Below, piece by piece: positions 27,856 through 41,767 of a DNA stretch of 64,000 nt (the first letter of the stretch is position 1; each line of letters begins with the position of its first letter). The stretch lies in the NCBI GenBank assembly GCA_038198935.1, contig JBBPZQ010000103.1:25649-89648 (forward strand), in the 5' to 3' direction. The translations under genes and the position numbers were made by a program. The stretch is from Anaerolineae bacterium. Lineage in GTDB: Bacteria > Chloroflexota > Anaerolineae > JACRMK01. The notes below the pieces were generated by a model. The model did no database searches and had not been told where the DNA came from. It was given only the letters and a program-made list of their open reading frames with translations.

Positions 27856-27925
27856 GTTCTGCTTGCTGCTCACGATGGCGGGGTGTATGCATAGTTGTAT
27901 TGACGTGAATCAGAAAGGTGGACAG

Positions 27926-30613
27926 ATGACTCAGGAATCCTCAAGAAAAATCGAAACAAGCAACCAAAGTGGCGGTATCAACATCAGCGGCGGCAATATC
28001 ATTAGTGTTGAAGGGGATTTTGTCGGGCGTGATCAGATCGTCAAGATTTCTGCTCCTGTTGCCATACACCAACTACCACCTGATTCGACTAACTTCATCG
28101 GTCGAGAAGAGGAAGTTAGCAAGGCACTCGCAATTCTGTCAACTAACATGGAAGCCCCTACAATTCTTATCTTCAACGGCAACGGGATGGGTGGGGTGGG
28201 TAAGACAGCGTTAGCTATACATATTGCTCATCAACTAATAGCGAGATACCCTGATAGTCAGCTGTTCGTGAATCTGCGTGGGGGAAGTGGTTCACCAATG
28301 AGTTCATCAGCGGCCATGGCCCATGTCATCAGATCATTTCACCCTGATGTGCGACTGCCTAACACTGTAGAGGATTTAACAGCGATCTATCGCAGTGTTT
28401 TGTACGGGCAGAGGATTCTGTTAATTCTCGATGACGCGGCAGATGCTGAGCAAGTGACCCCACTTCTCCCTAGTTCTTCATCGTGTGCGGTATTCATAAC
28501 CTCACGTAAACGCTTTGACCTGCCCGGCGTTCCCAGGGTTGATTTGGATGTGCTTTCGGCAGACGCTTCACGCGAGTTGCTGATGCGTTTGGACCCGCGC
28601 CTTCGTGATACCCCTGATATAGCTGCCCGAATTGCCTCTCTGTGTGGGCATTTGCCACTTGTCTTACGAATTGCCGGCTCTACCCTGAGAGCTAGGCCCC
28701 ATCTGATTCCAGCCGAATATGCCGGCGAATTGGCGGCAATAAGCCTCAGTTCACTTTCACAAGGGTCTGCTCACATCACCATCCAAGAGGTTTTCGACCT
28801 TAGTTACGGACAATTAAGCCCACAACTACAAGCAGCATGGGTTAAATTGGCTGTGTTCACATCTACGTTTGATCGCACGGCAGCGGCTGCTGTATGGAAC
28901 GTGGATGAAAGACAGACCAAGACGTGGCTAGACGAATTGGCGAACTCTAGCTTGATCAATCGGTACAATGAAACCCAACGTTATGCTCTACATCCCTTAT
29001 TGCTCGATTTCGCCTTGAGTTTCTCACCACAGTTTGATCTAACTGAAGCACATGAACGACACGCTCACTACTACCTCTCTGTAGCTCGCCAAGCTGGTAA
29101 ACTATACTTTGAGAGTGGAGAAGGGGTGCTGCGTGGTTTAGCTCTATATGACCAAGAGTGGCCGAACATTCAGTCAGCATTGACACGACTAGCTAAACAG
29201 GCCCCGGATAATTCCGTGGCTGCGCGGTTGTACTGCGATTACATTGACGCGAGTATTTATTACCTTGAACTTCGCCTGTCTCCAAAGGAACTAATCATGT
29301 GGTTGGAACGAGCAGTCGCCGCCGCTCGTTTATTAGGCGATAGACAGGCGGAAAGCAGCCACCTGAGCAACTTAGGCTTGAATTATTCAACACTAGGGGA
29401 AAGCCGTCAGGCCATAGAATATTACCAACAAGCGCTCACCATCGCGCGTGAAATAGGAGACAAACATGCCGAAAGTGTAGACCTAGTGAATCTTGGACAA
29501 GCGTATGCTACACTAGGTGAGATAAGGCATGGCATAGAGTTCTACACCGAAGCATTGCAAATAGCCAGAGAAATTGGAGATCGCCTCACAGAAAGCACAG
29601 TGCTGGATGGTTTGGGAGGGGCTTATTCTGCTCTAGGTGACTATCGGCGCGCCATTGAGTCCCATGAACAAGCATTACTAATTGCTCGTGCAATTGGAAA
29701 TAGACGAGGCGAAGGGAATATTCTCGGAAACCTAGGGGTTGCCTACGCCGCATTAGGCAATCTTCGCCACGCTATTGAGTTCTATGAACAGGCATTGATC
29801 ATTGCTCGCGAGATTGGTGATCGACGCAGCGAAAGTAACCAACTGGGCAGTTTAGGGAATGCTTATGCGGTCCTTGGTGAGGCTCACCACGCGATCGAAT
29901 ATTATGAACAAGCGTTACATATTGCGCGTGAATTGGGTGACCAAGTTAATCAAGGAGTCAATCTAGCAAATCTAGGAATAGCGTACACTCGTCTCGGGGA
30001 CATTCAACGCGCCTTTGAATTGTCTGAACAATCTCTGCTTATTGCACAGAGGACCGGCGACCGTCGAAGCGAAAGTAGCCGACTTGGTAATCTGGGAATG
30101 GCCTACGCATCACTAGGTGAAATACCCAATGCAATTCAATACTATGAGAAGGCGCTTGTCATCGCCCAGCAACTGGAGGATGCACGGTCTCTCGCTAACG
30201 TTTCGTTTGAGCTGGGCGTACTCTATGCCGAACATGATCGCTGGCACGACGGCCTCCGGTTGCTCGAACAGAGCCTTGCCATCCGTCGCCAATTCGACGA
30301 CCTCAACGCGCGCGCCGACACAATTTTTCAAATTGCTCGCACACACCACCTAATGAGTAATCTTGAAAATGCACGGGTACATTACCGCGATGCACTGCGC
30401 TTGTATCAACGGACCCATAACCAGCGCGGCATCGCCGCCTGCAAAAACGGTTTGGGCCGCCTGGCGATTCAGTTGGGCTTCAGTGCCGATGCGACACGGG
30501 AACTTGCTCAGGCGCACGAAATGTATGTTGAATTAGGAGACACGCAACGCGCCAGCGAGGTCGAAGAGGTTCTCCGGCTGGCTAATCACGCGAAGGAGAA
30601 ACAACCCGCATGA
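27926..30613 (+). CDS. STAND-family NTPase (NB-ARC-like P-loop) with C-terminal tetratricopeptide (TPR_12-type) repeat array
   Basis: AAAGGTGGA RBS; FIGREEE pre-Walker motif, Walker A GMGGVGKT, Walker B ILLILDD, about 10 TPR-like repeats (NLG.AY..LG....AIE.YEQAL.IAREIGDR). Local GC is visibly lower than the flanks. Confidence 0.8.
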   Translation: MTQESSRKIETSNQSGGINISGGNIISVEGDFVGRDQIVKISAPVAIHQLPPDSTNFIGREEEVSKALAILSTNMEAPTILIFNGNGMGGVGKTALAIHIAHQLIARYPDSQLFVNLRGGSGSPMSSSAAMAHVIRSFHPDVRLPNTVEDLTAIYRSVLYGQRILLILDDAADAEQVTPLLPSSSSCAVFITSRKRFDLPGVPRVDLDVLSADASRELLMRLDPRLRDTPDIAARIASLCGHLPLVLRIAGSTLRARPHLIPAEYAGELAAISLSSLSQGSAHITIQEVFDLSYGQLSPQLQAAWVKLAVFTSTFDRTAAAAVWNVDERQTKTWLDELANSSLINRYNETQRYALHPLLLDFALSFSPQFDLTEAHERHAHYYLSVARQAGKLYFESGEGVLRGLALYDQEWPNIQSALTRLAKQAPDNSVAARLYCDYIDASIYYLELRLSPKELIMWLERAVAAARLLGDRQAESSHLSNLGLNYSTLGESRQAIEYYQQALTIAREIGDKHAESVDLVNLGQAYATLGEIRHGIEFYTEALQIAREIGDRLTESTVLDGLGGAYSALGDYRRAIESHEQALLIARAIGNRRGEGNILGNLGVAYAALGNLRHAIEFYEQALIIAREIGDRRSESNQLGSLGNAYAVLGEAHHAIEYYEQALHIARELGDQVNQGVNLANLGIAYTRLGDIQRAFELSEQSLLIAQRTGDRRSESSRLGNLGMAYASLGEIPNAIQYYEKALVIAQQLEDARSLANVSFELGVLYAEHDRWHDGLRLLEQSLAIRRQFDDLNARADTIFQIARTHHLMSNLENARVHYRDALRLYQRTHNQRGIAACKNGLGRLAIQLGFSADATRELAQAHEMYVELGDTQRASEVEEVLRLANHAKEKQPA

Positions 30614-31881
30614 ACGAGGCAGACCGTCTTTGGGATGAACTGGACATCACCTACGCGCACTGGGGATTGAACGAGATTCCGTTTTCCGAAGTCCCGCCCT
30701 TGTTGCGCGAGTCGCAGTTGTCAGAGATTTTCACAGGCCGCACACAAGAATTGCGCGAGGTATTCAATCTGTTTCGCGGGCGCGAACGCAAACGCCTGTT
30801 TGTGTATGGCTGGGTCGGCATCGGCAAAACTGCCTTCATTCTTGAAGTGTTGAGCGTATTGCGCCGCCGAGCGAAAGATACATTAGCCGCGTACATCAGC
30901 CTGCCCCCAGAGACCGATTTGGCGACCGCGGCTCTGATCGCGCTCGCTCGCGAAATGGAAGACGACGAATGGGCGCAACACCAACTGAACCAGATGGGAT
31001 TGCGCCCGCGAACGCGCGCAGTCGAAAAAGAAACGACGGTGAAGGCTGGCTTAGCTGGCATGGGCGTCGAGACCAAAGAAGAAACCGTCCCGATTTCTCC
31101 GCCGCGTTTTCCTGCGCTGAGTTTTGAAGACCTATTGAAACGCGCGTTGCAGAAGTATCACCGCGTTGTCATTGCGATAGATGACCTCGACAAGCAAGAC
31201 CCGGCGCGCGTGCGCGAATTGCTGCGGAACGATCAGGGAATGCTCAAGGGCGGCGCTTGGTTCATGCTCACGGGGCATCCATCAGGCTTGACGCGCGATA
31301 TTGTAACGCGCGAACTGGGGTTGTTCGATCTCGCTATCGAGTTGAAGAAACTGGATCAACCCACAACCTATCGGATGCTGATCAACTACCTCAATAGCGC
31401 GCGTCCACACAATGCGCGGCGCGACCACGAAGATCCGCTTTCAGTCCGCCCCTTCACGCCTGAAACTGCGCGTATTCTTTGCGAACGGTCAGATGGGGTG
31501 CCACGTTGGCTCAATCGGCTGGGCAGTTATGTTTTGCTCAAGGCGGCTGAACTTCACGCCGACATCATCACTCCCGATGTGTTGCAGCACGGATTAGAGT
31601 ATGCCGATCAACAGTTGCGCGGACAAACAGGGCTGACGCTTGAAGATCGCTATGTGCTTGAGCTGGTGTTAGAGAAAGGCACTTTCTCAGATGACTCCGC
31701 AACACTGGATGATCTTGAACACCTCAAGGTTAAAGAGTTCAACGAGGTCATGCCGATCCTAGAGAAACTGGTGCAACTCGATCTGTTGCGTCGCGTGCCG
31801 ACCGAACGCGCAACGGAGTATGCGCCCACGCCGATGGTGTCAGGCAAGAGCGAATCGTCTTCTGAAATCGCGCATGACTAA
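30610..31881 (+). CDS. AAA+/STAND-like ATPase (AAA_16 / Orc1-Cdc6-like P-loop NTPase)
   Basis: 4-nt ATGA overlap with the upstream gene; FTGRTQEL motif, Walker A GWVGIGKT, Walker B VVIAIDDLD. Confidence 0.7.
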   Translation: MNEADRLWDELDITYAHWGLNEIPFSEVPPLLRESQLSEIFTGRTQELREVFNLFRGRERKRLFVYGWVGIGKTAFILEVLSVLRRRAKDTLAAYISLPPETDLATAALIALAREMEDDEWAQHQLNQMGLRPRTRAVEKETTVKAGLAGMGVETKEETVPISPPRFPALSFEDLLKRALQKYHRVVIAIDDLDKQDPARVRELLRNDQGMLKGGAWFMLTGHPSGLTRDIVTRELGLFDLAIELKKLDQPTTYRMLINYLNSARPHNARRDHEDPLSVRPFTPETARILCERSDGVPRWLNRLGSYVLLKAAELHADIITPDVLQHGLEYADQQLRGQTGLTLEDRYVLELVLEKGTFSDDSATLDDLEHLKVKEFNEVMPILEKLVQLDLLRRVPTERATEYAPTPMVSGKSESSSEIAHD

Positions 31882-31933
31882 CCATTTGCAACACACCACT
31901 TCGCGTCCCGAGCCTGTCGAAGGGCGCCCCCGT

Positions 31934-31985
31934 GTCGTCGTCGCCCTCAGCGGCAGAGTGGATAGTTCGAGCGTTGCCCACTGCT
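31934..31985 (+). pseudogene. degenerate duplicate of the mnmA 5' end (encodes RVVVALSGRVDSSSVA)
   Basis: About 52 bp at roughly 85% identity to mnmA codons 6-22 at 32348..32400 (KVVVALSGGVDSSTTA). Confidence 0.55.
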
Positions 31986-32031
31986 CGCCTAACAGGAGCA
32001 GGATCAAGTAGATTCCGATTGGAGGCTTATC

Positions 32032-32319
32032 GTGATGAATCCAACGATGACGACAACTAATATCCTGACATTAGAAGAAGTCGCCGAGTATCTGCGACTA
32101 CCAAAAGAGACCGTAGAGCGTCAGGCATTGCGCGGTCAAATTCCAGGACGGCGTATCGAAGATACTTGGCGTTTCCTCAAAACGGCGATTGACGAATGGT
32201 TGCGTAGCCACGACAGCCGCGCGATTTTGTTACAGCAAGCAGGCGCATTAGCAGACGATGAGTCTTTGCCGCAACTGGTCGAGACGATTTACGTAGGGCG
32301 CGGACATTGCGCGTCGTGA
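32032..32319 (+). CDS. helix-turn-helix DNA-binding protein, excisionase/HTH_17 family
   Basis: 95 aa; ILTLEEVAEYLRLPKETVERQALRGQIPGRRI...WRF matches excisionase-family DNA-binding domains. Confidence 0.6.
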   Translation: MMNPTMTTTNILTLEEVAEYLRLPKETVERQALRGQIPGRRIEDTWRFLKTAIDEWLRSHDSRAILLQQAGALADDESLPQLVETIYVGRGHCAS

Positions 32320-32329
32320 ACTGAATGGA

Positions 32330-33445
32330 TTGAAGATGAGCACGAAAGTCGTCGTCGCCCTCAGCGGCGGCGTGGACAGTTCGACAACCGCCGCGCTGCT
32401 CGTCGAGCGCGGTTATGATGTCGTCGGCGTGATGATGCGCCTGTGGGCGGGCGTGGGGCCCGACGGCGGCGAGTACAATCGCTGCTGCTCGCCCGAAGCC
32501 GTCGCCGACGCGCGCTCGGTGTGCGTGCGCCTCGGCATTCCGTTTCACTTACTGAACTTTGAAGCGCCGTTCAAGCAATACGTCGTGGATTTCTTTCTCG
32601 ACGGCTACACGCGCGGCGTCACGCCGAATCCGTGTGTCGAATGCAATCGGCACGTCAAGTTCGACGCGCTGCTCAAGCAGGCGCTCGCGCTCGGCGCGGA
32701 TTATCTGGCGACAGGTCACTACGCGCGTGTGCAAACACTTCAAGATGAAAGCGTTCAGTTGTTGAAGGGTGTTGATCCCCTGAAGGATCAATCGTATGCG
32801 CTCTGCATGTTGACGCAGGCGCAACTCTCGCGTTCGATGTTTCCGCTCGGCGAGTTCACGAAGCAGCAGGTGCGGCAGATGGCGCGCGAGCGCAACATCA
32901 TCGTCGCCGAGAAGAGCGAGAGTCAGGAATTGTGTTTCGTGCAGAAAGACTATCGCGAGTTTGTGCAAGAGCAGCGCCCAGACGCGTTCGTGTCGGGCCC
33001 CATTCTCGATTTGCACGGCAATGTTGTAGGCGAGCACGATGGCTTGCCCGCGTACACGATTGGCCAGCGTAAGGGCTTGCATATACATCCTGAGCCGCAT
33101 CGAACGATGGCGGCCGGCGAGCCGCTGTATGTGGTTGACGTGGACGCTGCTCGCAATGCGCTGGTCGTTGGGCGCAAGCACCAGGTGTGGCAAGAGCACA
33201 TGCTTGTCACGCACATTAACTGGATCAGCGGAGAAGCGCCGAGCGAGACGCTTGAAGTGAACGTGAAGATTCGCTACAAGAGTGAAGAAAAGTCCGCGCG
33301 CGTCGAGCCGTTGGCTGATGCGAGCGCGCGCGTGACATTCGCCCAGCCACAGCGTGCGATCACCCCCGGTCAAGCAGCCGTGTTCTATCGTGGCGACGCT
33401 TGTCTGGGCGGCGGCATCATCACGCGCATGGGAGCGAGCCAATGA
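32330..33445 (+). CDS. mnmA: tRNA 2-thiouridine(34) synthase MnmA
   Basis: 371 aa; PP-loop VVVALSGGVDSS, catalytic Cys motifs (NPCVECN, ELCF). Confidence 0.9.
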   Translation: MKMSTKVVVALSGGVDSSTTAALLVERGYDVVGVMMRLWAGVGPDGGEYNRCCSPEAVADARSVCVRLGIPFHLLNFEAPFKQYVVDFFLDGYTRGVTPNPCVECNRHVKFDALLKQALALGADYLATGHYARVQTLQDESVQLLKGVDPLKDQSYALCMLTQAQLSRSMFPLGEFTKQQVRQMARERNIIVAEKSESQELCFVQKDYREFVQEQRPDAFVSGPILDLHGNVVGEHDGLPAYTIGQRKGLHIHPEPHRTMAAGEPLYVVDVDAARNALVVGRKHQVWQEHMLVTHINWISGEAPSETLEVNVKIRYKSEEKSARVEPLADASARVTFAQPQRAITPGQAAVFYRGDACLGGGIITRMGASQ

Positions 33446-33699
33446 TGGTGCCGACCGTCGTGCCCGCCGTGCTGCTCGGCGTGGTGAGCAGCACGATGCT
33501 GGCTGCCGTCGTGCATCTCACGCGCGGCAACACTATTCGCGACCTGATCGTGATCTGGATTGCCGTCTCGCTTGGCTTTTGGCTCGCGGCTGTCGCAGCC
33601 GCTTGGCTGCACGCGCCACTGTTCACGATTGGCGAGTTGCAATTGATCGCAGGATTGGTCGGCGGGATGATTGCCGCGCTGATTGTCACACGCAAGTGA
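33442..33699 (+). CDS. small membrane protein (2-3 TM helices)
   Basis: ATGA overlap with the mnmA stop; hydrophobic 85-aa product. Confidence 0.45.
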   Translation: MMVPTVVPAVLLGVVSSTMLAAVVHLTRGNTIRDLIVIWIAVSLGFWLAAVAAAWLHAPLFTIGELQLIAGLVGGMIAALIVTRK

Positions 33700-33717
33700 G
33701 TGTGCTATAATTTTTTT

Positions 33718-34023
33718 ATGTCAGTACCTGAAATCATTGCAACCATTCGTGACATCTTCATCATCCTGTTGGCGTTGGCGGGCGTCGTCGTCGTCGGGTT
33801 GATGGTGTGGCTGATTTTTGAACTCAGAGGACTGATTCGCTTTTTGCGCGACGAGCTCAAACCGATTCTCGTCTCGGCGCAAGACACCGTGAGCACGGTG
33901 CGCGGCACGACGACCTTCGTCAGCAAGAACGTGCTGGAACCGGTCGTCAAAGTGTCGAGCTATGTCGCCGGCGTGCGCGCCATCTTCGACACGGTGCTGG
34001 GCCGCGGCAAGCAAAAGAGTTGA
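33718..34023 (+). CDS. DUF948-like membrane-anchored protein
   Basis: N-terminal TM helix followed by a helical region (LIRFLRDELKPILVSAQDTVSTV). Confidence 0.55.
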   Translation: MSVPEIIATIRDIFIILLALAGVVVVGLMVWLIFELRGLIRFLRDELKPILVSAQDTVSTVRGTTTFVSKNVLEPVVKVSSYVAGVRAIFDTVLGRGKQKS

Positions 34024-34051
34024 GAAATCTTGTTTTTGAAAGGAGTCTGAC

Positions 34052-34480
34052 ATGGCAGACAGAGACAGTGGCGGTTGGGAATTTTCCGCGGGGTTCTTCA
34101 TCGGCGGATTGGTGGGCGGTTTGCTCGGCGCAGTGGCAGCATTGCTGATGGCGCCGCAGGCCGGCGAAGACACGCGCGCAGTGCTGCGCGAGAAGGGCAT
34201 CGAGTTGAAAGAGCGCGCTGAGGACGTGACCTACGACGCGCGGCACAAGGCTGAAGAGACAGCGATGCAAGCGCGTATGCGCGCCGAAGAAGCCGCTGCG
34301 CAAGCGCGTGACCGCGCTTCGACGATGCGTGAGAGCGCGAAGCTGACGCTCGACGAGAAGGTGTCGCAAGTGAAGGACGCGATTGACACGGGCAAGCAAG
34401 CCGCCGACCGCAAGAAGGATGAGATGATGCAGAACCTCAATGCCGACAAGGGCAACAAGACGCCCGGCATGGAAAGCTGA
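34052..34480 (+). CDS. YtxH-domain protein (general stress-like, TM + coiled coil)
   Basis: FFIGGLVGGLLGAVAALLMAPQAGEDTR YtxH signature followed by a charged coiled-coil. Confidence 0.65.
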   Translation: MADRDSGGWEFSAGFFIGGLVGGLLGAVAALLMAPQAGEDTRAVLREKGIELKERAEDVTYDARHKAEETAMQARMRAEEAAAQARDRASTMRESAKLTLDEKVSQVKDAIDTGKQAADRKKDEMMQNLNADKGNKTPGMES

Positions 34481-34499
34481 GGCAGTCTCTCATCGAATG

Positions 34500-34531
34500 A
34501 AAATCCCGCTCACACGAGCGGGATTTTTTTA
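34500..34531 (+). terminator. Rho-independent terminator
   Basis: AAAATCCCGCTC-ACAC-GAGCGGGATTTTTTTAT. Confidence 0.85.
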
Positions 34532-34617
34532 TCAATCTATCTCAACCGCAGAGACGCAGAGAACGCAGAGAAAACAAGAATAACCTCTGCGCGCTCTGCG
34601 CCTTTGCGGTTATGTGT

Positions 34618-36192
34618 TTAGCCCATCTGCTTGATCGCCCTGAGTGCGCGCGGGATGCGCGGCAACAAGTCGCTCGCAATCACGCCAGCATCGCCGATGT
34701 CGTCGCGCGCAAGTTCGCCCGCGCTGCCGTGAAGGTAGCCGCCGACAATCGCCGCATCGCGTGGCGACAAACCTTGCGCCATCAATCCGACGAGGATGCC
34801 CGACAGCACGTCTCCACTGCCGGCCGTCGCGAGCGCGGGATTAGCAAACGGCAGCAGCGTCACTTGGCCGCTTGGCTCCGCGATCAACGTGAACGCACCT
34901 TTAAATAACACAATCTGATTCCACTGCTGCGAGTGTTCACGCGCACAAGTCTCTCGATTGTCGGTTATCGCCTTGCTGTCCAGCCCCGACAGCCGCGCGA
35001 ACTCGCCGACGTGCGGCGTGAGCACGCAGTTCGGCGGCAACGTGCGCCACCACTCGCGCTGTTCGCTCAAAATGTTCAGCGCGTCGGCGTCAATCACCGT
35101 GCGCGCGAAGGCAGGGGATTGTTCATGCGCATCGAGCAGGCGATAGATGAACTGCTGCGTGCCGCGCGCGCGCCCCAAGCCCGGCCCGATCAGCAGCGCA
35201 TCGTAATCCTTCAGTCCGTCCAGCAGTACACGCGTTGCATTGCTCGCAATCGCACCCGCGGCATCGGGCAGCGGCACGAACGTCGCTTCGTGCAGTGATG
35301 CCGCGACGATGTGCTGCACCTCGCTCGTCGTCGCCAACGTGACCAAGCCTGTGCCGACGCGCGCGGCTGCTGCCGCCGACAGATATGGCGCGCCCGTGTA
35401 GTAGCTCGACCCGGCGACGATCATCGCCTTGCCGAAGGTGCCCTTGTGTCCCGTGCGCGGGCGCGTGGGCAGCAGTTTGGCAATCTCAATTTGAGTGGCC
35501 AAGTTGAGCGCGATTGAATCGGCGAACTCAGGCGGGATACCAATGTCGGCAATCACCCACTCGCCGAGCGCATCCGCCGCAGGAAATTTGTAGAAGCCAA
35601 CTTTCGGAAATGCGAACGTGACCGTGAGATCGGCGGACACGGTCGCGGGATCGAGCGTGCCCGTGTCGGCGTTCAATCCGCTCGGCAGGTCAACGGCGAT
35701 GATGGAGGGTGGAGGGTGGGATTTGGGATTGGGGATTTGGGGATTGACGAGCACGAGGATTTCTTTGAGCGTTCCTTCAATCGGACGATTCGCGCCGGTG
35801 CCGAGCAGTGCATCCACGCTGATCGTGCTGCCATCGAGTGCGGCGCGCAGTTGCGAAAAGTTTTCGTCGCCCTCAGCGCGCAACGTCTTGATGCCCCGCG
35901 CTTGCGTCTGCGCGAAGTTGAAATCGCCTTCGGTTTTGCGCTTCCACAAGTAGAGCGTCACTTGCGCGCCCATGTCATGCAGATGGCGCGCGGCGACCAA
36001 GCCGTCGCCGCCGTTGTTGCCGGGTCCCACGAGCACGAGCATGTTCTGATCGCGTACACTCCAGCGCGCGACAATCGCATCGGCGACGGCGCGACCCGCC
36101 GCCTCCATCATCTGCGCGTAACTCACGCCCGCTACATCCGCGCGCTGTTCGAGCTGGCGCATCTGCTCGACCGTGACGATTTTCATGTGCAC
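34618..36192 (-). CDS. nnr: bifunctional NAD(P)H-hydrate repair enzyme Nnr (epimerase + ADP-dependent dehydratase)
   Basis: 524 aa; YjeF-N motifs (LVLVGPGNNGGDG) and dehydratase domain (GPGLG, GSGDVLSG). Carries a Pro-rich linker insertion. Confidence 0.9.
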   Translation of the reverse strand: MHMKIVTVEQMRQLEQRADVAGVSYAQMMEAAGRAVADAIVARWSVRDQNMLVLVGPGNNGGDGLVAARHLHDMGAQVTLYLWKRKTEGDFNFAQTQARGIKTLRAEGDENFSQLRAALDGSTISVDALLGTGANRPIEGTLKEILVLVNPQIPNPKSHPPPSIIAVDLPSGLNADTGTLDPATVSADLTVTFAFPKVGFYKFPAADALGEWVIADIGIPPEFADSIALNLATQIEIAKLLPTRPRTGHKGTFGKAMIVAGSSYYTGAPYLSAAAAARVGTGLVTLATTSEVQHIVAASLHEATFVPLPDAAGAIASNATRVLLDGLKDYDALLIGPGLGRARGTQQFIYRLLDAHEQSPAFARTVIDADALNILSEQREWWRTLPPNCVLTPHVGEFARLSGLDSKAITDNRETCAREHSQQWNQIVLFKGAFTLIAEPSGQVTLLPFANPALATAGSGDVLSGILVGLMAQGLSPRDAAIVGGYLHGSAGELARDDIGDAGVIASDLLPRIPRALRAIKQMG

Positions 36193-36222
36193 ATCTGATA
36201 GTCCAAAATTTTCGGAGGGTCG

Positions 36223-38010
36223 CTATTGCAGAAGATGTAATTGCTTACCTGTCGCGGATTCCCAGATCCGTGCGCTGCCATCATGGCTTGCCGTCGCTAC
36301 CGTCCTGCCATCTGGGCTCCAGGCTACCATGTTCACTGCGCCTTGATGCCCGCGCAAGACCGCGACGACTTGTCCGGAATTGGCGTCCCAAATTTGCGGT
36401 TCTTGGGCTGTCAGCACTCGGCTGGTTGCCACCCGTTGCCCGTTCGGGCTCCACGCCACATCGAAACTCTCTCCAGACGTTTTCAACGTCAACAGAATTT
36501 CACCCCTGGAGGGCTCCCAAACGCGCACCTCATTAATGGCAGCGGTGGCGATCCGCTTCCCCTCAGGACTCCAGACCGCATCAAAAACGCGATCGTTGTG
36601 CGGTAAGATGATAAGATTTTTCCCGCTGTTGGGATCCCACACCCGTGCCGTCTGATCGTCACTGGCTGTGAGCAGGCGCTGTCCGTCGGGACTCCAACTT
36701 ACCATGCGCACGCCTAACAAGTGCCCTGCAAGAACCGCCAAAGGCTTGCCCGTGTCGGCATCCCATACCCGTGCTGTCAGATCCAAACTTGCGGTGGCAA
36801 GGCGCTTCCCATCTGGGCTCCATGCCACCCGACTGACTAGAATTTGATGCCCCGTCAACGTTGAGAGCAGTTGGCCCGTCTGTGCGTCCCACACCCGCGC
36901 CCACACCCGCGCCCGCACATCCAAAGTCGCGGTCGCGAGGCGATCGCCTTTTGGGCTCCACGTGATCTGATTGACTTTCCCAAAGTCTGTCACTCCCAAC
37001 GTCAGCAGCAACTTGCCGCTGCCCACGTCCCATACACGCGAAACGTCGCTGGCGGTGGCGAGTTGTTTTCCATCGGGACTCCACTCCACGTTGAAAATCG
37101 CGGCCTTGCGAGTACCAAAAGTTTCGGAGAGAGTTCGTAGTCGCTTACCCGAGACGGAGTCCCACACATACGCCACGCCGTCGGAGTCCGCAGTTGCCAA
37201 CTGTGTGCCATCGGGACTCCATGCCACGCTGGTTACGCGTGGAAGGTTCGGCACGGCGCTTGCCGCGGGTGTTGGCGCAGCGGTGGTGCGGCTGATGGGC
37301 GTGAGGGTGGGCGCAACTGCCGCCGTCACAGTTAACAACATCTGATCATTCCACTTCCCGCCTGTCAATTCGCCTAAATCGGGAAAGCCGCTGTCCAGCA
37401 CTGCTCGTGTGGCTGGACTCGGCGCCGCAGGCGGCACGCCATCCGGCACGACGATCTGCTGCCCCGACACCGCCTCAACGGTCACGCCCGCAGCTGCTGC
37501 CTCCACGCTTCCCGTTTTGACGATTGTCCAGGTACGGTGCAAGCGCACATCGTAATTAACGAAGAACTCGGTGCCAGTGGCGGTGATCGTGACGCCACCA
37601 GGCGTTTGAAATTGTATGCGCTGTGCTGCGCGCGCTTGTGGCGTGATGGTGTTGAACACGCTGCCATTATTCAGCAGGAACTGAATGAGCAGCGGCGCGC
37701 TAGGGTCAACTCCTGCGTACTTCAGTTGCACCTCAGAATCATGGAAGATGTCCACCACGAGCAGGTCGGCAAACCTCAACAGTGCTTCGCCTTGAGGCTT
37801 CACATCAATCTTGTCACCTTGGCGCGCGACACGCGTAGAGCCGACGGGGATCGTTTCGCCTGCTGCGGATTGCGGCTGGAAAACGACTTCGGCCTTTTGC
37901 GTTTCCAGCGTCGCATCGGTTTCGGATGAAGATGGCCCCAATGGGCTAATCGGACCACATGCGAACAGCAATAGCAGCATCGCGAACAGTCGGCGATTAC
38001 GCGCGTGCAT
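36223..38010 (-). CDS. WD40-repeat lipoprotein with N-terminal non-WD domain
   Basis: Signal peptide with lipobox LLLFAC; at least 8 WD40 repeats (AWSPDG.QLATAS.D.TARVWD). Confidence 0.8.
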   Translation of the reverse strand: MHARNRRLFAMLLLLFACGPISPLGPSSSETDATLETQKAEVVFQPQSAAGETIPVGSTRVARQGDKIDVKPQGEALLRFADLLVVDIFHDSEVQLKYAGVDPSAPLLIQFLLNNGSVFNTITPQARAAQRIQFQTPGGVTITATGTEFFVNYDVRLHRTWTIVKTGSVEAAAAGVTVEAVSGQQIVVPDGVPPAAPSPATRAVLDSGFPDLGELTGGKWNDQMLLTVTAAVAPTLTPISRTTAAPTPAASAVPNLPRVTSVAWSPDGTQLATADSDGVAYVWDSVSGKRLRTLSETFGTRKAAIFNVEWSPDGKQLATASDVSRVWDVGSGKLLLTLGVTDFGKVNQITWSPKGDRLATATLDVRARVWARVWDAQTGQLLSTLTGHQILVSRVAWSPDGKRLATASLDLTARVWDADTGKPLAVLAGHLLGVRMVSWSPDGQRLLTASDDQTARVWDPNSGKNLIILPHNDRVFDAVWSPEGKRIATAAINEVRVWEPSRGEILLTLKTSGESFDVAWSPNGQRVATSRVLTAQEPQIWDANSGQVVAVLRGHQGAVNMVAWSPDGRTVATASHDGSARIWESATGKQLHLLQ

Positions 38011-40273
38011 CGGCTACCTCCCGTCGAGATGCTTCATCCGCCGACGCAAAAACATAAAAGCCCAGCCCGCCCAACGCGCCGATGCTGAGACCGCAGATCA
38101 ATGCCAACGCGAAATTGTTCGACCAAAGATCGCTGAACAACGCCGACAAGATGGCTGCGAGCGCGGTACCCATTGGGATGAACAACAATCGCTGCGTTCG
38201 CGCGCGCGCCAACGCGGCGCTCACACCCAAGCCAGCACCAAGCAGCGCACCAACGATTAGGTGTCCCGCGTTCAGCGGGGGAGCAGCTACGGCAACATAG
38301 AGCGCAAAGGCGATAGCGCTCAGGGGCGCGCAGACGAGTAGCATAGCCAACCATTTGCGTTTGGGTTGTGCTTGCCAACGCCACAAACACAGCCCCATAC
38401 CGAAACCGATCGCCGCGCCGATTGGGAACATGGTGAGAAACGCCAGTGCCACAACGCCGATCAGCAAATTCGGTAAGAGCGCAGCCGACTTGAAGTATGT
38501 GAGCAATGCGAAGCCGAGCGCAAAACCTAAGCCAACGCCTAAAGCGCCGCCGCCGGCTTGCTTCAAGAAGCGAAACTGCCTGTCTCTCTCATCGGCTAGC
38601 GCGTCCGATACCGCGCGCCTCTTTTCGATTTCACTTTCGCGCGCTTGTCTCTCTTCGTTCTGTTGCTGCTCGCGCTCGTGTGCTGCCTTGCTTGCGTCCA
38701 AGAAGGCTCGCGCCGAATCGTCCAGCGTGTCCTCGTGCTGTGCGCGCCACTGCATCGCGCCATCTAACTGGTACCCGTGATACAAGAAACTTTCGTTTTG
38801 ATCTGACTGCTCCCATTCTTGCGCGCGCTCGTTGAGGCGGCGCTTCACCCGCTCATCAGCGCGGCGGTCGTCGAGCCACGTTCGCAGCAAGTCCCATTCG
38901 CGGATGAGCGCTTCGTGTGCCACCTCGACCGTATCGGACTCCGCGATGACTAATCTCGCCTCCACCAGCATCGTTAGCACCGCATCCACACTTGGTTGAT
39001 CCGCACGGTGTGGAGACAATGAGCGGCGGGCGACCCGTCTCCGTGTATCGGGCGCGTCATCTCGCATCTCCGTCAAACTCACGAAGATGCCGCGCGCGAT
39101 GCGCTGCTGCTCGTCGCGCAATTGCAAATAGACAGCCGTAGCACTTTGTGCAATCGCGCCCCGCACGCCGCCTGCCTCGTGATAGCCTTGCAGCGTCAGT
39201 TGTCGCCCCCGCCGACGCTTCCACGTTTCGAGCAGCGCGTGAGAGAGCAAGGGCAGAGCACCAGGCTCATGGCCCACATCGGTGAGCAGCAAGTCCACCA
39301 AGCCTGCCTCAAACTGCCAGTTGCCCTCTCGCGCAGGTTGCTCGATGGCGCGGCGCAGTTCGTCGGGCTGCATTGCGTTGAGGTTGTACTGGTGCTGCGG
39401 CAGCACGCGGAAGAAGTCGGGGAAGACCGCGCACTGCTCGTAGAAGTCGGCGCGAACGGTGAGCACGACGCGCACTGGCCCCGCCGTGTCGTCCGCGACG
39501 GCATGGAGCAAGTTGTCCACGAACGCCTTGCGCTCGATGGGCTCTTTGCACGCGGTGAACACTTCCTCGAACTGGTCCACGACGAGCAGCAGTCGCTCGC
39601 CGCCATCCTGCTTGAGCGCGCGCGACGCGGCTAGGTCGAGGCTGCGCGCGTCGTGCGCGAGGTCGTCTATCAGCGTCGCCTGCGCGGTGACGGATTCGGA
39701 CGCGCGCGTGAGTGATGCCGCGAGTTCTTTCAGTGGATGCTCGGTCGGTTTGATGAGGTGCAGTTGCCAGCGTGGGCTGCCGTCGGGCATGACGAAGTGC
39801 TGCGGCTTGTCGGGATGCATAGCGGCGACGAGACCTGCGCGCACTACCGACGATTTGCCGCTGCCCGACGCGCCGACGACGGCGAGCAAGCGCTGCTCGC
39901 GCACATGGGCGACCAATTTGGCGGTGACCGCTTCGCGGCCGAAGAACAGCGGCGCATCCGCCACGTCGAAGTAGAGTAAGCCTTTGAACGGCGGCTCGCC
40001 GGGCGCGGGTTCGTCGGATTCAGCAGCGGCTGGCGCAGCCCGCTCACCAAAAATGACAGTCGCGCCCTCTCCAACGTTATAGATGTCGCGGATCACCTTG
40101 TCACGCCCGACAACATCTCCGCCGGCACGAACATGGCCGCTGCTGACGTTCACACCACCCGATTGGCTGGTGGTGGACCCACCCGCGGCGGAATTCGTCG
40201 GGGTATCTGCGCTGGGTTCATCGTTTGCGTTCGCACTCACGAGCTTTCTCCTGTCGAGCATCGTATGCCTCAC
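37997..40273 (-). CDS. STAND-type P-loop NTPase with N-terminal Gly-rich motif, coiled-coil and C-terminal multi-pass transmembrane domain
   Basis: FFGREAV pre-Walker motif, Walker A GASGSGKSS, Walker B LLLVVDQFEE, Glu/Arg-rich coiled coil, about 6 hydrophobic helices at the C-terminus; overlaps the WD40 gene by 14 nt. Confidence 0.7.
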   Translation of the reverse strand: MRHTMLDRRKLVSANANDEPSADTPTNSAAGGSTTSQSGGVNVSSGHVRAGGDVVGRDKVIRDIYNVGEGATVIFGERAAPAAAESDEPAPGEPPFKGLLYFDVADAPLFFGREAVTAKLVAHVREQRLLAVVGASGSGKSSVVRAGLVAAMHPDKPQHFVMPDGSPRWQLHLIKPTEHPLKELAASLTRASESVTAQATLIDDLAHDARSLDLAASRALKQDGGERLLLVVDQFEEVFTACKEPIERKAFVDNLLHAVADDTAGPVRVVLTVRADFYEQCAVFPDFFRVLPQHQYNLNAMQPDELRRAIEQPAREGNWQFEAGLVDLLLTDVGHEPGALPLLSHALLETWKRRRGRQLTLQGYHEAGGVRGAIAQSATAVYLQLRDEQQRIARGIFVSLTEMRDDAPDTRRRVARRSLSPHRADQPSVDAVLTMLVEARLVIAESDTVEVAHEALIREWDLLRTWLDDRRADERVKRRLNERAQEWEQSDQNESFLYHGYQLDGAMQWRAQHEDTLDDSARAFLDASKAAHEREQQQNEERQARESEIEKRRAVSDALADERDRQFRFLKQAGGGALGVGLGFALGFALLTYFKSAALLPNLLIGVVALAFLTMFPIGAAIGFGMGLCLWRWQAQPKRKWLAMLLVCAPLSAIAFALYVAVAAPPLNAGHLIVGALLGAGLGVSAALARARTQRLLFIPMGTALAAILSALFSDLWSNNFALALICGLSIGALGGLGFYVFASADEASRREVADARA

Positions 40274-40886: not shown

Positions 40887-40962
40887 GAAATCACCAAGAT
40901 ACCAAGACACAAAGAAGTGTTCGGAATCTTTGTGTCTTGGTGTCTTGGTGTCTTGGTGATTT
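40887..40962. repeat. intergenic hairpin with tandem-repeated arms (ACCAAGA / TGTCTTGG x3)
   Basis: aaatcaccaagataccaagacacaaag...ctttgtgtcttggtgtcttggtgtcttggtgattt. Confidence 0.7.
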
Positions 40963-41767
40963 AATAGATTTGTTTCTGCTTCTTGCGCCGCTTCTCTTTT
41001 TTGCTGACGGGCTGCGATGGCGTCTCGTCGGCAGGCTCATCATCGCTCGATACAGCGTCGGCTTGCGGCGTGATCGCATCAGCCAGCGCGCGATACATCG
41101 CGCTCGACAGTGCGGGCGTCGTGTGTCGCTGCAAGTAGGACTTCAAACCATTGAGCGGCATGATGTGCTCTGCCTGCTCAGGCACTTGCAATTCGACCTC
41201 CGGTTTCGTGAACACGATCAAGGGCTTCACGGGCGCGTCCGCACCTTCGCCGTTCGGCTTCAACCATTTTTGCAACCGAGCGATTTGGGATTGCGCTTCG
41301 GCCGTCGGGTTGCCCAAGCCGCCGTGCCGCCAATCGTGCCACACGCGGCTGAGCGAGAACGGCTGTCGCCACTGCTTGCCGTCGAAACTGACAAGTCCCG
41401 TTTCGTCTTTTATCACGATCACGTGCAGACCCGTCGGTGTGAGCAAGACGTGTTCCGCAGGTGTGTAGTAGTTGATCAGACGATAGCGCTTGTCCAATCC
41501 CTTCAACACCTTCTCCAGTCGCTGATCGTCGCGCGGCTCGATCTGCCAACGCTCTGCCAGCCGTCCGCCGATGGTCGCCACAATCGTGCCGACGATCAGC
41601 GACACGTAGGAGAGCGCGATGTACTCTGGCGCCGTCAGCGTTGGATTGGCCAAGCCGCCGAGCGCGATGAACAAACCCGGCAGCATGATCGCCAGCCCGC
41701 CGAGGCTCGCGTACTTTGCGAACTTAGTTTTGCGATCAATTTGTGATTGGTTGGTGTAAGTGATCAT
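40961..41767 (-). CDS. NERD-domain protein with N-terminal TM helices
   Basis: 268 aa; NERD-like core (RYRLINYYTPAEHVLLTPTGLHVIVIKDETG) and KKEKRRKK tail. Confidence 0.6.
   Translation of the reverse strand: MITYTNQSQIDRKTKFAKYASLGGLAIMLPGLFIALGGLANPTLTAPEYIALSYVSLIVGTIVATIGGRLAERWQIEPRDDQRLEKVLKGLDKRYRLINYYTPAEHVLLTPTGLHVIVIKDETGLVSFDGKQWRQPFSLSRVWHDWRHGGLGNPTAEAQSQIARLQKWLKPNGEGADAPVKPLIVFTKPEVELQVPEQAEHIMPLNGLKSYLQRHTTPALSSAMYRALADAITPQADAVSSDDEPADETPSQPVSKKEKRRKKQKQIY

Follow-up and report, generated by a model that had tools for sequence, protein, structure and literature searches.

Two STAND NTPases encoded on the same bacterial contig begin with similar Gly-rich peptides, and the question that this locus raises is whether the likeness is real and, if so, what such a peptide might do for both proteins. 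The stretch of DNA analysed (hereafter the window) comprises 64,000 nucleotides (nt) of the Anaerolineae contig JBBPZQ010000103.1 (assembly GCA_038198935.1, positions 25,649 to 89,648), and the likeness had been pointed out in an initial annotation of it. Protein A (27926..30613, + strand; 895 amino acids, aa) consists of the N-terminal motif, an NB-ARC NTPase, a long TPR array and a C-terminal TPR-like domain, and protein B (37997..40261, - strand; 754 aa) of a motif module, a Pro/Ala linker, an nSTAND1 NTPase and a C-terminal hydrophobic region. As judged from sequence comparison, each protein carries a single copy of a module that is widespread at N-termini but unannotated, and the best reading of this module appears to be that it works like the effector-associated domain (EAD) adaptors and resembles the bacterial amyloid signalling sequences (BASS) in size and composition.

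The N-terminal peptides of proteins A and B match

In protein A, the motif copy (TSNQSGGINISGGNIISVEGDFVGRDQIVKI) occupies aa 11-41 of the 895-aa protein (nt 27956-28048, + strand). The corresponding core in protein B (TTSQSGGVNVSSGHVRAGGDVVGRDKVIRD; aa 30-59 of the 754-aa protein, nt 40174-40085, - strand) opens a longer module (40043..40174, - strand; aa 30-73), in which it is followed by an extension (IYNVGEGATVIFGE) that aligns with a ..GGHIIHAE.GATVIIGE segment common to nSTAND1 homologs. When the two copies were aligned with a one-residue gap, 14/30 positions were identical (47%), and the local BLOSUM62 score of 81 lay about 11 standard deviations (SD) above that of composition-preserving shuffles (26.5 +/- 4.8, maximum 57), none of which reached it (0/2000). 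A hidden Markov model (HMM) of the family described below, run in six frames over the whole window, found these two copies (B 43.4 bits, A 42.9 bits) and no third, the next best match having 5 bits. Against a profile made from nSTAND1 homologs of B, protein A scored 39.6 bits and B 40.9 bits.

Thus, the initial observation that two NTPases have a motif in common at their N-termini stands, with both peptides present and about 11 SD above the shuffles, although the term 'near-identical' overstates their likeness: the identity had been put at about 60%, whereas it is 47% with the gap and 9/30 for the ungapped strings that were then compared. Similarly, the peptide reported for B exists, but its true position is about 35 nt lower than had been given. 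The NTPases had also been described as unrelated; NB-ARC and nSTAND1 do differ as STAND clades, but they are not strictly unrelated. At the DNA level the two motifs are about 64% identical, and there is therefore no sign of recent copying; a recent gene conversion between A and B was ruled out on the same grounds. The closest relatives of the A motif were found on small TCAD2-type proteins, and the N-terminal layout of A is also that of acidobacterial NB-ARC-TPR proteins.

The module is widespread and predominantly N-terminal

The initial annotation had proposed a search of the databases with a profile of the motif. A family profile was built from 19 motif segments and searched against 1.84 billion (1.84e9) representatives, and it returned 467 clusters (50% identity) at E<=1e-3. 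The consensus of 253 instances reads xN[VQR]SGG[VAI][ND]xxAxxVx[IV]GGDVVGRDK[IV], with D20, G23, R24 and D25 invariant. The core of the module is about 25 aa long, and in nSTAND1 proteins it reaches about 45 aa by continuing through ..SAGGHIIHAE.GATVIIGE, which is followed by a Pro/Ala linker and then PFKGLQYFD; the extension is present in B as far as aa 73. As a whole, the module resembles three to four GG-x-hydrophobic-hydrophobic pseudo-repeats placed around an invariant GD-V-V-G-R-D-K, and its composition is G 19.1%, V 15.5%, D 10.8%, I 8.8%, N 6.7%, K 4.1%, L 1.7% and P 0.1%. Some proteins have two full copies in tandem.

Inspection of the carriers also revealed a second, degenerate tandem copy (..TGGGAYVAGNVNVGSGGEFVGRDKI..) in many of them (P0243, P0246, P0290, P0329 and P0351; L077 4015-5694), which is reminiscent of HET-s, with its two-rung pseudo-repeat, and of the repeated BASS1 and BASS6 motifs, and octad runs of the GDKVGGDKV type that extend the module in P0046, P0072 and P0073.

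With respect to position, the motif started at or before aa 60 in 136/146 new top hits, and among hits of at least 300 aa this was true of 29/32, where a uniform distribution along the protein would give 3.4. In 80 reference-genome loci, 76 of the 90 carrier open reading frames (ORFs) had the motif no more than 60 aa from an upstream Met, and in 7/90 it lay no more than 45 aa from the stop codon. Beforehand, a common low-complexity feature with no enrichment at STAND N-termini had been named as the result that would speak against a shared module; what was found is a motif with invariant residues, an N-terminal bias and carriers rich in STAND proteins.

No existing model was found to cover the module: over the N-terminal segments of A and B, Pfam gave no match even at E<=10, and NCBIfam had no model over the N-termini of either protein. 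The motif is not described in the full-text literature searched, including papers from the Aravind group, a search of incomplete coverage that leaves an earlier description elsewhere possible. A word-index search with the motif alone gave one candidate and no match, the query being too short for the index. The idea that the motif is a phage feature was rejected, as only 2 weak loci were found in 2.9 million viral contigs.

The motif is carried by STAND proteins of several clades and by non-receptor proteins

Of the nSTAND1 homologs of B, the closest 120 were inspected, and the motif precedes the NTPase in 35 of them. Other close homologs have Pfam matches to EAD1, EAD7, CHAT, trypsin, BTAD, kinase or TIR, and many of the N-terminal sequences of B homologs start in an EAD-like, trypsin-like, BTAD, CHAT, TIR or kinase fashion. 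To describe the carriers more generally, Pfam families were counted in two independent sets, 93 genome-derived ORFs and 55 metagenomic carriers of at least 180 aa, for which 25 families were listed. AAA_16 was matched by 34/93 genome carriers and 21/55 metagenomic carriers, nSTAND1 by 21/93 and 16/55, NACHT by 18/93 and 7/55, nSTAND3 by 16/93 and 8/55, nSTAND6 by 13/93 and 6/55, and NB-ARC by 8/93 and 6/55. TCAD2 (8/93), PNP_UDP (2/93) and CHAT (2/93) were found on genome carriers and are not among the 25 families listed for the metagenomic ones. The receptor clades with the motif include nSTAND1, NACHT, NB-ARC and nSTAND3/5/6, and a motif-NACHT-FGE-sulfatase architecture was seen at three loci (L006, L015 and L019).

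The motif also heads a range of other proteins, namely motif-TCAD2 proteins of 125-145 aa, a motif-PNP_UDP protein (L012), a motif-TPR-TIR protein (L042), a motif-TRADD-N-EAD7 adaptor (L032), a protein with FGE-sulfatase alone (L043) and single-pass membrane proteins. In three families of proteins of about 205 aa (P0287 type), the whole extended module is at the C-terminus instead. The next gene encodes a caspase-domain protein in all three of the loci recovered for these C-terminal carriers (L003, L004 and L011), and the N-terminal domain of the caspase-linked small proteins has no Pfam match, EACC1 included, even at E<=10.

A family of about 125-132 aa from acidobacteria and alphaproteobacteria (L025 7611-7997, L052 1288-1683, L044, L058, L066 and L080) has an N-terminal motif and ends in a conserved hydrophobic tail rich in Gly and Ala (..LAPGAVSAVVGAFATPILGGIAGPVTKYVLDK). 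L025 and L052, the two members that were scanned, had no Pfam match, and in both cases the gene lies directly upstream of one encoding a motif-NB-ARC-TPR protein. To judge from its layout, this family looks like a membrane-acting effector in which the order is reversed compared with published amyloid-signalling effectors, with the motif first and the hydrophobic segment last.

Motif copies are numerous in some genomes and sometimes lie in adjacent genes

Carriers are concentrated in metagenome-assembled genomes (MAGs) of Chloroflexota (Thermoflexales, Anaerolineae and Chloroflexia), with a few in Acidobacteria and Proteobacteria. Each of 11 Chloroflexota MAGs had 2-10 carrier genes, and six of these MAGs had at least six; these counts are lower bounds, as are the individual values of 10 for Thermoflexales JTS-AC314, 9 for BIN19, 8 for binchicken_373, 7 each for fen_1063 and MFD02979, and 6 for BIN20. 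The set in BIN20 contains NB-ARC, nSTAND1, TCAD2, transmembrane (TM) and caspase-linked carriers. Genomes with multiple copies thus mix carrier classes, so that the co-occurrence of NB-ARC and nSTAND1 carriers observed in the window is what such genomes normally show.

For the most part, the copies are scattered through the genome and not paired; two matching ORFs were present in 13/80 loci. The adjacent pairs included the small motif protein with the Gly/Ala-rich hydrophobic tail followed by motif-NB-ARC-TPR (L025 and L052), a Zn-ribbon-motif-TM protein followed by motif-TCAD2 (L053 and L061), and a motif-2TM protein followed by motif-TPR-TIR (L042). The two motifs of the L025 pair are 88% identical, and over the in-locus pairs the mean identity was 0.65, compared with a background of 0.58 (p=0.02, n=11).

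The module shares features with BASS motifs and with EADs

The published families BASS1-10 (Dyrka et al. 2020, bioRxiv 10.1101/2020.01.06.895854), with which the fungal motifs HRAM / HET-s-NWD2 and PUASM can be grouped, are enriched in G, N, Q, V and I and depleted in P, L and K. The motif has a composition of this kind, rich in G/V/I/N and poor in P/L, with K at 4.1% and D also enriched (10.8%). The likeness extends further, as a motif of about 25 aa sits at the extreme N-terminus of NB-ARC/NACHT-type receptors (aa 11-41 in A), the same motif is present on a separately encoded effector, sometimes in an adjacent collinear gene, some proteins have pseudo-repeated copies or are 'all-in-one' fusions, and PNP_UDP, TIR and CHAT occur as alternative effector domains. 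However, BASS1 (..ASGxARIYQAGRDQHITER) has only the GRD[QK] core in common with the motif, and membership of BASS1 was rejected, since an HMM of the 27 published sequences gave 3.1 bits for A and -0.6 bits for B and the hhalign probability was 7%. Membership of the cyanobacterial cluster 20 was rejected likewise (HMM score at most 6.5 bits), and neither VGRD nor GRDK occurs as a string in the published table of BASS pairs, which served for the comparison with BASS2-10. The published screen required a Bell-domain C-terminus adjoining a NACHT/NB-ARC gene, and was therefore blind to partners in which the motif is N-terminal or the Bell domain is lacking.

The arrangement of the genes also differs from that of BASS pairs. 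The window has no carrier beyond A and B, and so no adjacent effector with a C-terminal motif; the C-terminal carriers of the P0287 type adjoin caspase genes, not NLR genes, in three short loci; the partners tested match no Bell model or other Pfam family outside the motif; and the usual partners have an N-terminal motif together with TCAD2-type or enzymatic domains.

EAD1-11 were described by Kaur, Burroughs, Iyer and Aravind (2020; PMC7159879), who inferred homotypic coupling through EADs where the domain is present on the core NTPase as well as on effectors, the genes adjoin and a genome has numerous paralogs. In the present family, the motif is found on the core STAND component and on effector or signalling proteins, often encoded next to each other (L025, L042, L052, L053 and L061), and there are many paralogous copies per genome. 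Moreover, other nSTAND1 homologs bear EAD1 or EAD7 in place of the motif, and the protein of L032 joins motif, TRADD-N and EAD7. The difference lies in the element itself, as EADs are small globular alpha-helical or alpha+beta domains, whereas the motif is a Gly-rich peptide of 25-45 aa with no predicted monomer fold. Neither N-terminal segment matched a Pfam EAD at E<=10.

Two other systems offer partial parallels. In the EACC1-caspase arrangement (System 4 of Kaur et al. 2020), the gene of a small constant protein lies 5' of that of the caspase-domain protein, and some EACC1 proteins are fusions with EAD1 or EAD2; in the same way, a small protein with the C-terminal motif precedes a caspase gene at three loci, but this protein matches no EACC1 at E<=10 and neither gene of the pair is found in the window. 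The second system, Bab/Agp (BASS11) of the antiphage abortive infection response in E. coli (bioRxiv 10.1101/2024.11.07.622273), is described as two adjacent proteins with a shared short amyloid motif, through which a sensor acts on a membrane-acting cell-death effector. The sensor and effector families described there differ from those found here, and the parallel is one of description and not of sequence. PADLOC, when run on the window, gave only generic TPR or P-loop matches, none of them specific.

The motif may couple receptors to effectors

Taken together, the EAD-like genomic criteria and the BASS-like physical character led us to favour a homotypic motif that folds upon assembly, and the sequences would accordingly appear to form a new family that joins EAD-like network wiring with BASS-like physical character. 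We lean towards the view that the motif is a homotypic coupling element linking receptors to effectors or adaptors; that the assembly would be truly amyloid-like is a more doubtful proposition. The receptor side would be provided by the N-termini of STAND/NLR-like NTPases of several clades, and the effector or adaptor side by TCAD2-type, PNP_UDP, TIR, single-pass membrane, TRADD-N/EAD7 and caspase-linked small proteins. Ligand-driven oligomerisation of the NTPase would gather copies of an otherwise unstructured motif, which could then fold onto each other as stacked beta-arches to give either an amyloid-signalling-like assembly or a finite beta-oligomer, and this assembly would recruit or template the copies on the effector side and so activate the effector. 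We infer self-association, templating and effector activation by this route; in this genome, A and B would accordingly share a partner and feed the same effector(s), encoded outside the window.

The initial annotation had suggested a short shared adaptor or oligomerisation module, and the conservation of the motif, its N-terminal position and its presence on both STAND and non-receptor carriers are consistent with this. The comparison that it drew with EADs was also borne out, the motif being present on stand-alone effector or adaptor proteins that are sometimes encoded by the adjacent gene, but its alternative comparison with bactofilin repeats was not, as neither N-terminal segment matched the Pfam bactofilin family (PF04519) at E<=10.

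Several observations weigh against coupling through the motif. The 64-kb window encodes no motif-bearing partner, TCAD2-like protein or caspase-linked small protein; the co-variation between partners is weak (p=0.02, n=11); and in most pairs both copies are N-terminal, unlike the classical layout in which the motif is C-terminal in the effector and N-terminal in the NLR. In P0248, an all-in-one PNP_UDP-TRADD-N-motif-NB-ARC-TPR protein, the motif is internal. The motifs of A and B are not mutually closest, ranking 25th and 39th of 252, and a special co-evolution of the two is accordingly unsupported. The lack of a predicted monomer fold, which counts in favour of coupling, comes from an AlphaFold2 model made with a 15-sequence alignment, in which the motif had a predicted local distance difference test score of about 50 and formed no secondary structure; the size of the alignment makes this result weak, and it is uninformative about the assembled state. 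Finally, an in-register stack would not usually contain an invariant charged R-D-K, yet BASS1, which forms fibrils in experiments, has GRDQ.

It is improbable that the motif acts only in cis on its own NTPase, whether by capping it with an N-terminal beta-strand or by serving as a segment for autoinhibition or finite oligomerisation that aids ring assembly, and recruits no other protein. Such an element would suit the facts that STAND NTPases are the majority of carriers, that a conserved linker joins the motif to the nSTAND1 domain, that the motif of P0248 lies directly ahead of NB-ARC and that no partner is encoded in the window; but the motif heads proteins that are not NTPases (TCAD2-type, PNP_UDP, TIR, membrane and TRADD-N-EAD7 proteins) and ends the caspase-linked ones, it is found in several STAND clades with unrelated N-terminal boundaries, and homologs of B have EAD or effector Pfam domains and EAD-like or enzymatic N-termini at the place of the motif. 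We give little credence to the idea that Arg/Lys-specific signalling peptidases (caspase/CHAT or trypsin-like) recognise or cleave the invariant G-R-D-K core, which would make the peptide a removable pro-segment or processing tag. This would leave unexplained some 25 conserved positions with a GG-x-V-x repeat pattern, the tandem duplication of the whole unit and the higher similarity of copies in adjacent genes, and most carriers, A and B included, have no peptidase gene nearby. The idea draws its appeal from R24, D25 and K26, which are invariant or nearly so, from the Peptidase_C14 gene that always adjoins the small proteins with a C-terminal motif (three loci), from the frequency of CHAT and trypsin domains in the same protein families, and from the proposal that proteolytic processing is a theme of these conflict systems (PMC7159879).

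That the two Gly-rich N-termini resemble each other by chance or through low complexity is scarcely credible: the segments are indeed rich in G, S and V and their true identity is 47%, but the score lies about 11 SD above the shuffles with 0/2000 reaching it, both segments give about 40 bits or more against a profile made from other proteins, and there are 467 clusters at E<=1e-3 across the library.

If homotypic coupling or templating through the motif holds true, a large unannotated family (467 clusters) would tie many bacterial NLR-like receptors to effectors encoded elsewhere in the genome, which would account for signalling by 'effector-less' STAND proteins like A and B. The logic of amyloid signalling and of EADs would thereby be extended to nSTAND1 and to Chloroflexota, and the HMM would provide a sequence handle for matching orphan receptors with effectors in metagenomes. 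A bolder and rather unlikely extension is that Chloroflexota, and sporadically Acidobacteria, might signal immunity or cell death through a many-to-many network in which a single short beta-arch, prion-like motif provides the wiring, in place of helical death-fold or EAD domains. Several STAND clades (NB-ARC, nSTAND1, NACHT and others) would in that case nucleate the same fold, and TCAD2-type effectors with their hydrophobic C-terminal tail, as well as PNP_UDP, TIR and caspase-linked effectors, would be templated in trans; with its motif at the N-terminus, the effector would have the opposite orientation to that in every amyloid signalling pair described.

Protein A is probably part of a two-gene cassette

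The longest ORF for A runs from 27863 to 30613 (916 aa), and its likely start is the ATG at 27926, directly preceded by a ribosome-binding site (AAAGGTGGA). For B, the longest ORF is 40273-37997 (- strand; 758 aa) and the likely start is the ATG at 40261, with a ribosome-binding site (GGTGAGG) before it. The start codons of both proteins match exact NCBI protein records (A = P0363, 895 aa; B 754 aa); an exact look-up with the longest ORFs of A and B gave no match, the NCBI models beginning at internal ATGs.

In Pfam, A matched NB-ARC (2.8e-11; 43.6 bits, which passes the gathering cut-off of 23.5) and TPR_12 (5.8e-52). The NB-ARC core (28106..28705, + strand) corresponds to aa 82-281 of the 916-aa ORF, that is aa 61-260 of the 895-aa protein, and has a Walker A motif, GMGGVGKT, at aa 87. 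The start of the following gene, which encodes an AAA_16/ORC-like ATPase (30610..31881, + strand; 423 aa; Pfam AAA_16 2.7e-11), overlaps the stop of A, and the two genes probably form a cassette. A segment made up of the C-terminal 125 aa of A and the AAA_16/ORC-like gene (window 30227-31881) has a conserved counterpart with 68% DNA identity in locus L010 (9722-11784) of the Anaerolineae MAG fen_1063. There the first gene encodes a 269-aa HEAT-motif-TPR protein without NB-ARC, the motif is kept in both versions of the cassette, and the surroundings are recO/glyQS compared with nifS/mnmA in the window. Immediately behind the cassette and ahead of mnmA, the window also encodes a small HTH_17 (excisionase/MerR-like) DNA-binding protein (32032-32319, + strand), which could be the remnant of a mobile insertion.

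Protein B lies next to a WD40 protein gene

Protein B matched Pfam nSTAND1 (PF20703) at E=5e-127, with 425 bits compared with a gathering cut-off of 27.1, and has a cluster relative from a Chloroflexota MAG. The nSTAND1 core (38792..39991, - strand; aa 95-494 of the 758-aa ORF) begins PFKGLLYFD, and a Walker A motif, GASGSGKS, is located at aa 130. By hydropathy, the C-terminal hydrophobic (membrane) region (38060..38557, - strand; aa 569-734) has seven 19-residue windows over threshold, equivalent to about seven predicted TM segments, and it takes the place of the WD40 or FGE-sulfatase sensor that is usual at the C-terminus of nSTAND1 proteins. A WD40 beta-propeller protein is encoded separately (36223..38010, - strand; 595 aa; Pfam WD40 3.6e-57); the start of its gene overlaps the end of B by 14 nt, and its N-terminus has a signal/lipobox-like sequence (MHARNRRLFAMLLLLFAC). 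The same order of B and WD40 genes recurs in an independent assembly (L085), and B and the WD40 protein may together constitute one receptor divided over two genes, with its sensor outside the cytoplasm. The second gene upstream of B (40961-41767, - strand) encodes a NERD (nuclease-related) protein with a hydrophobic N-terminal segment, and a 4HBT thioesterase gene lies between the two.

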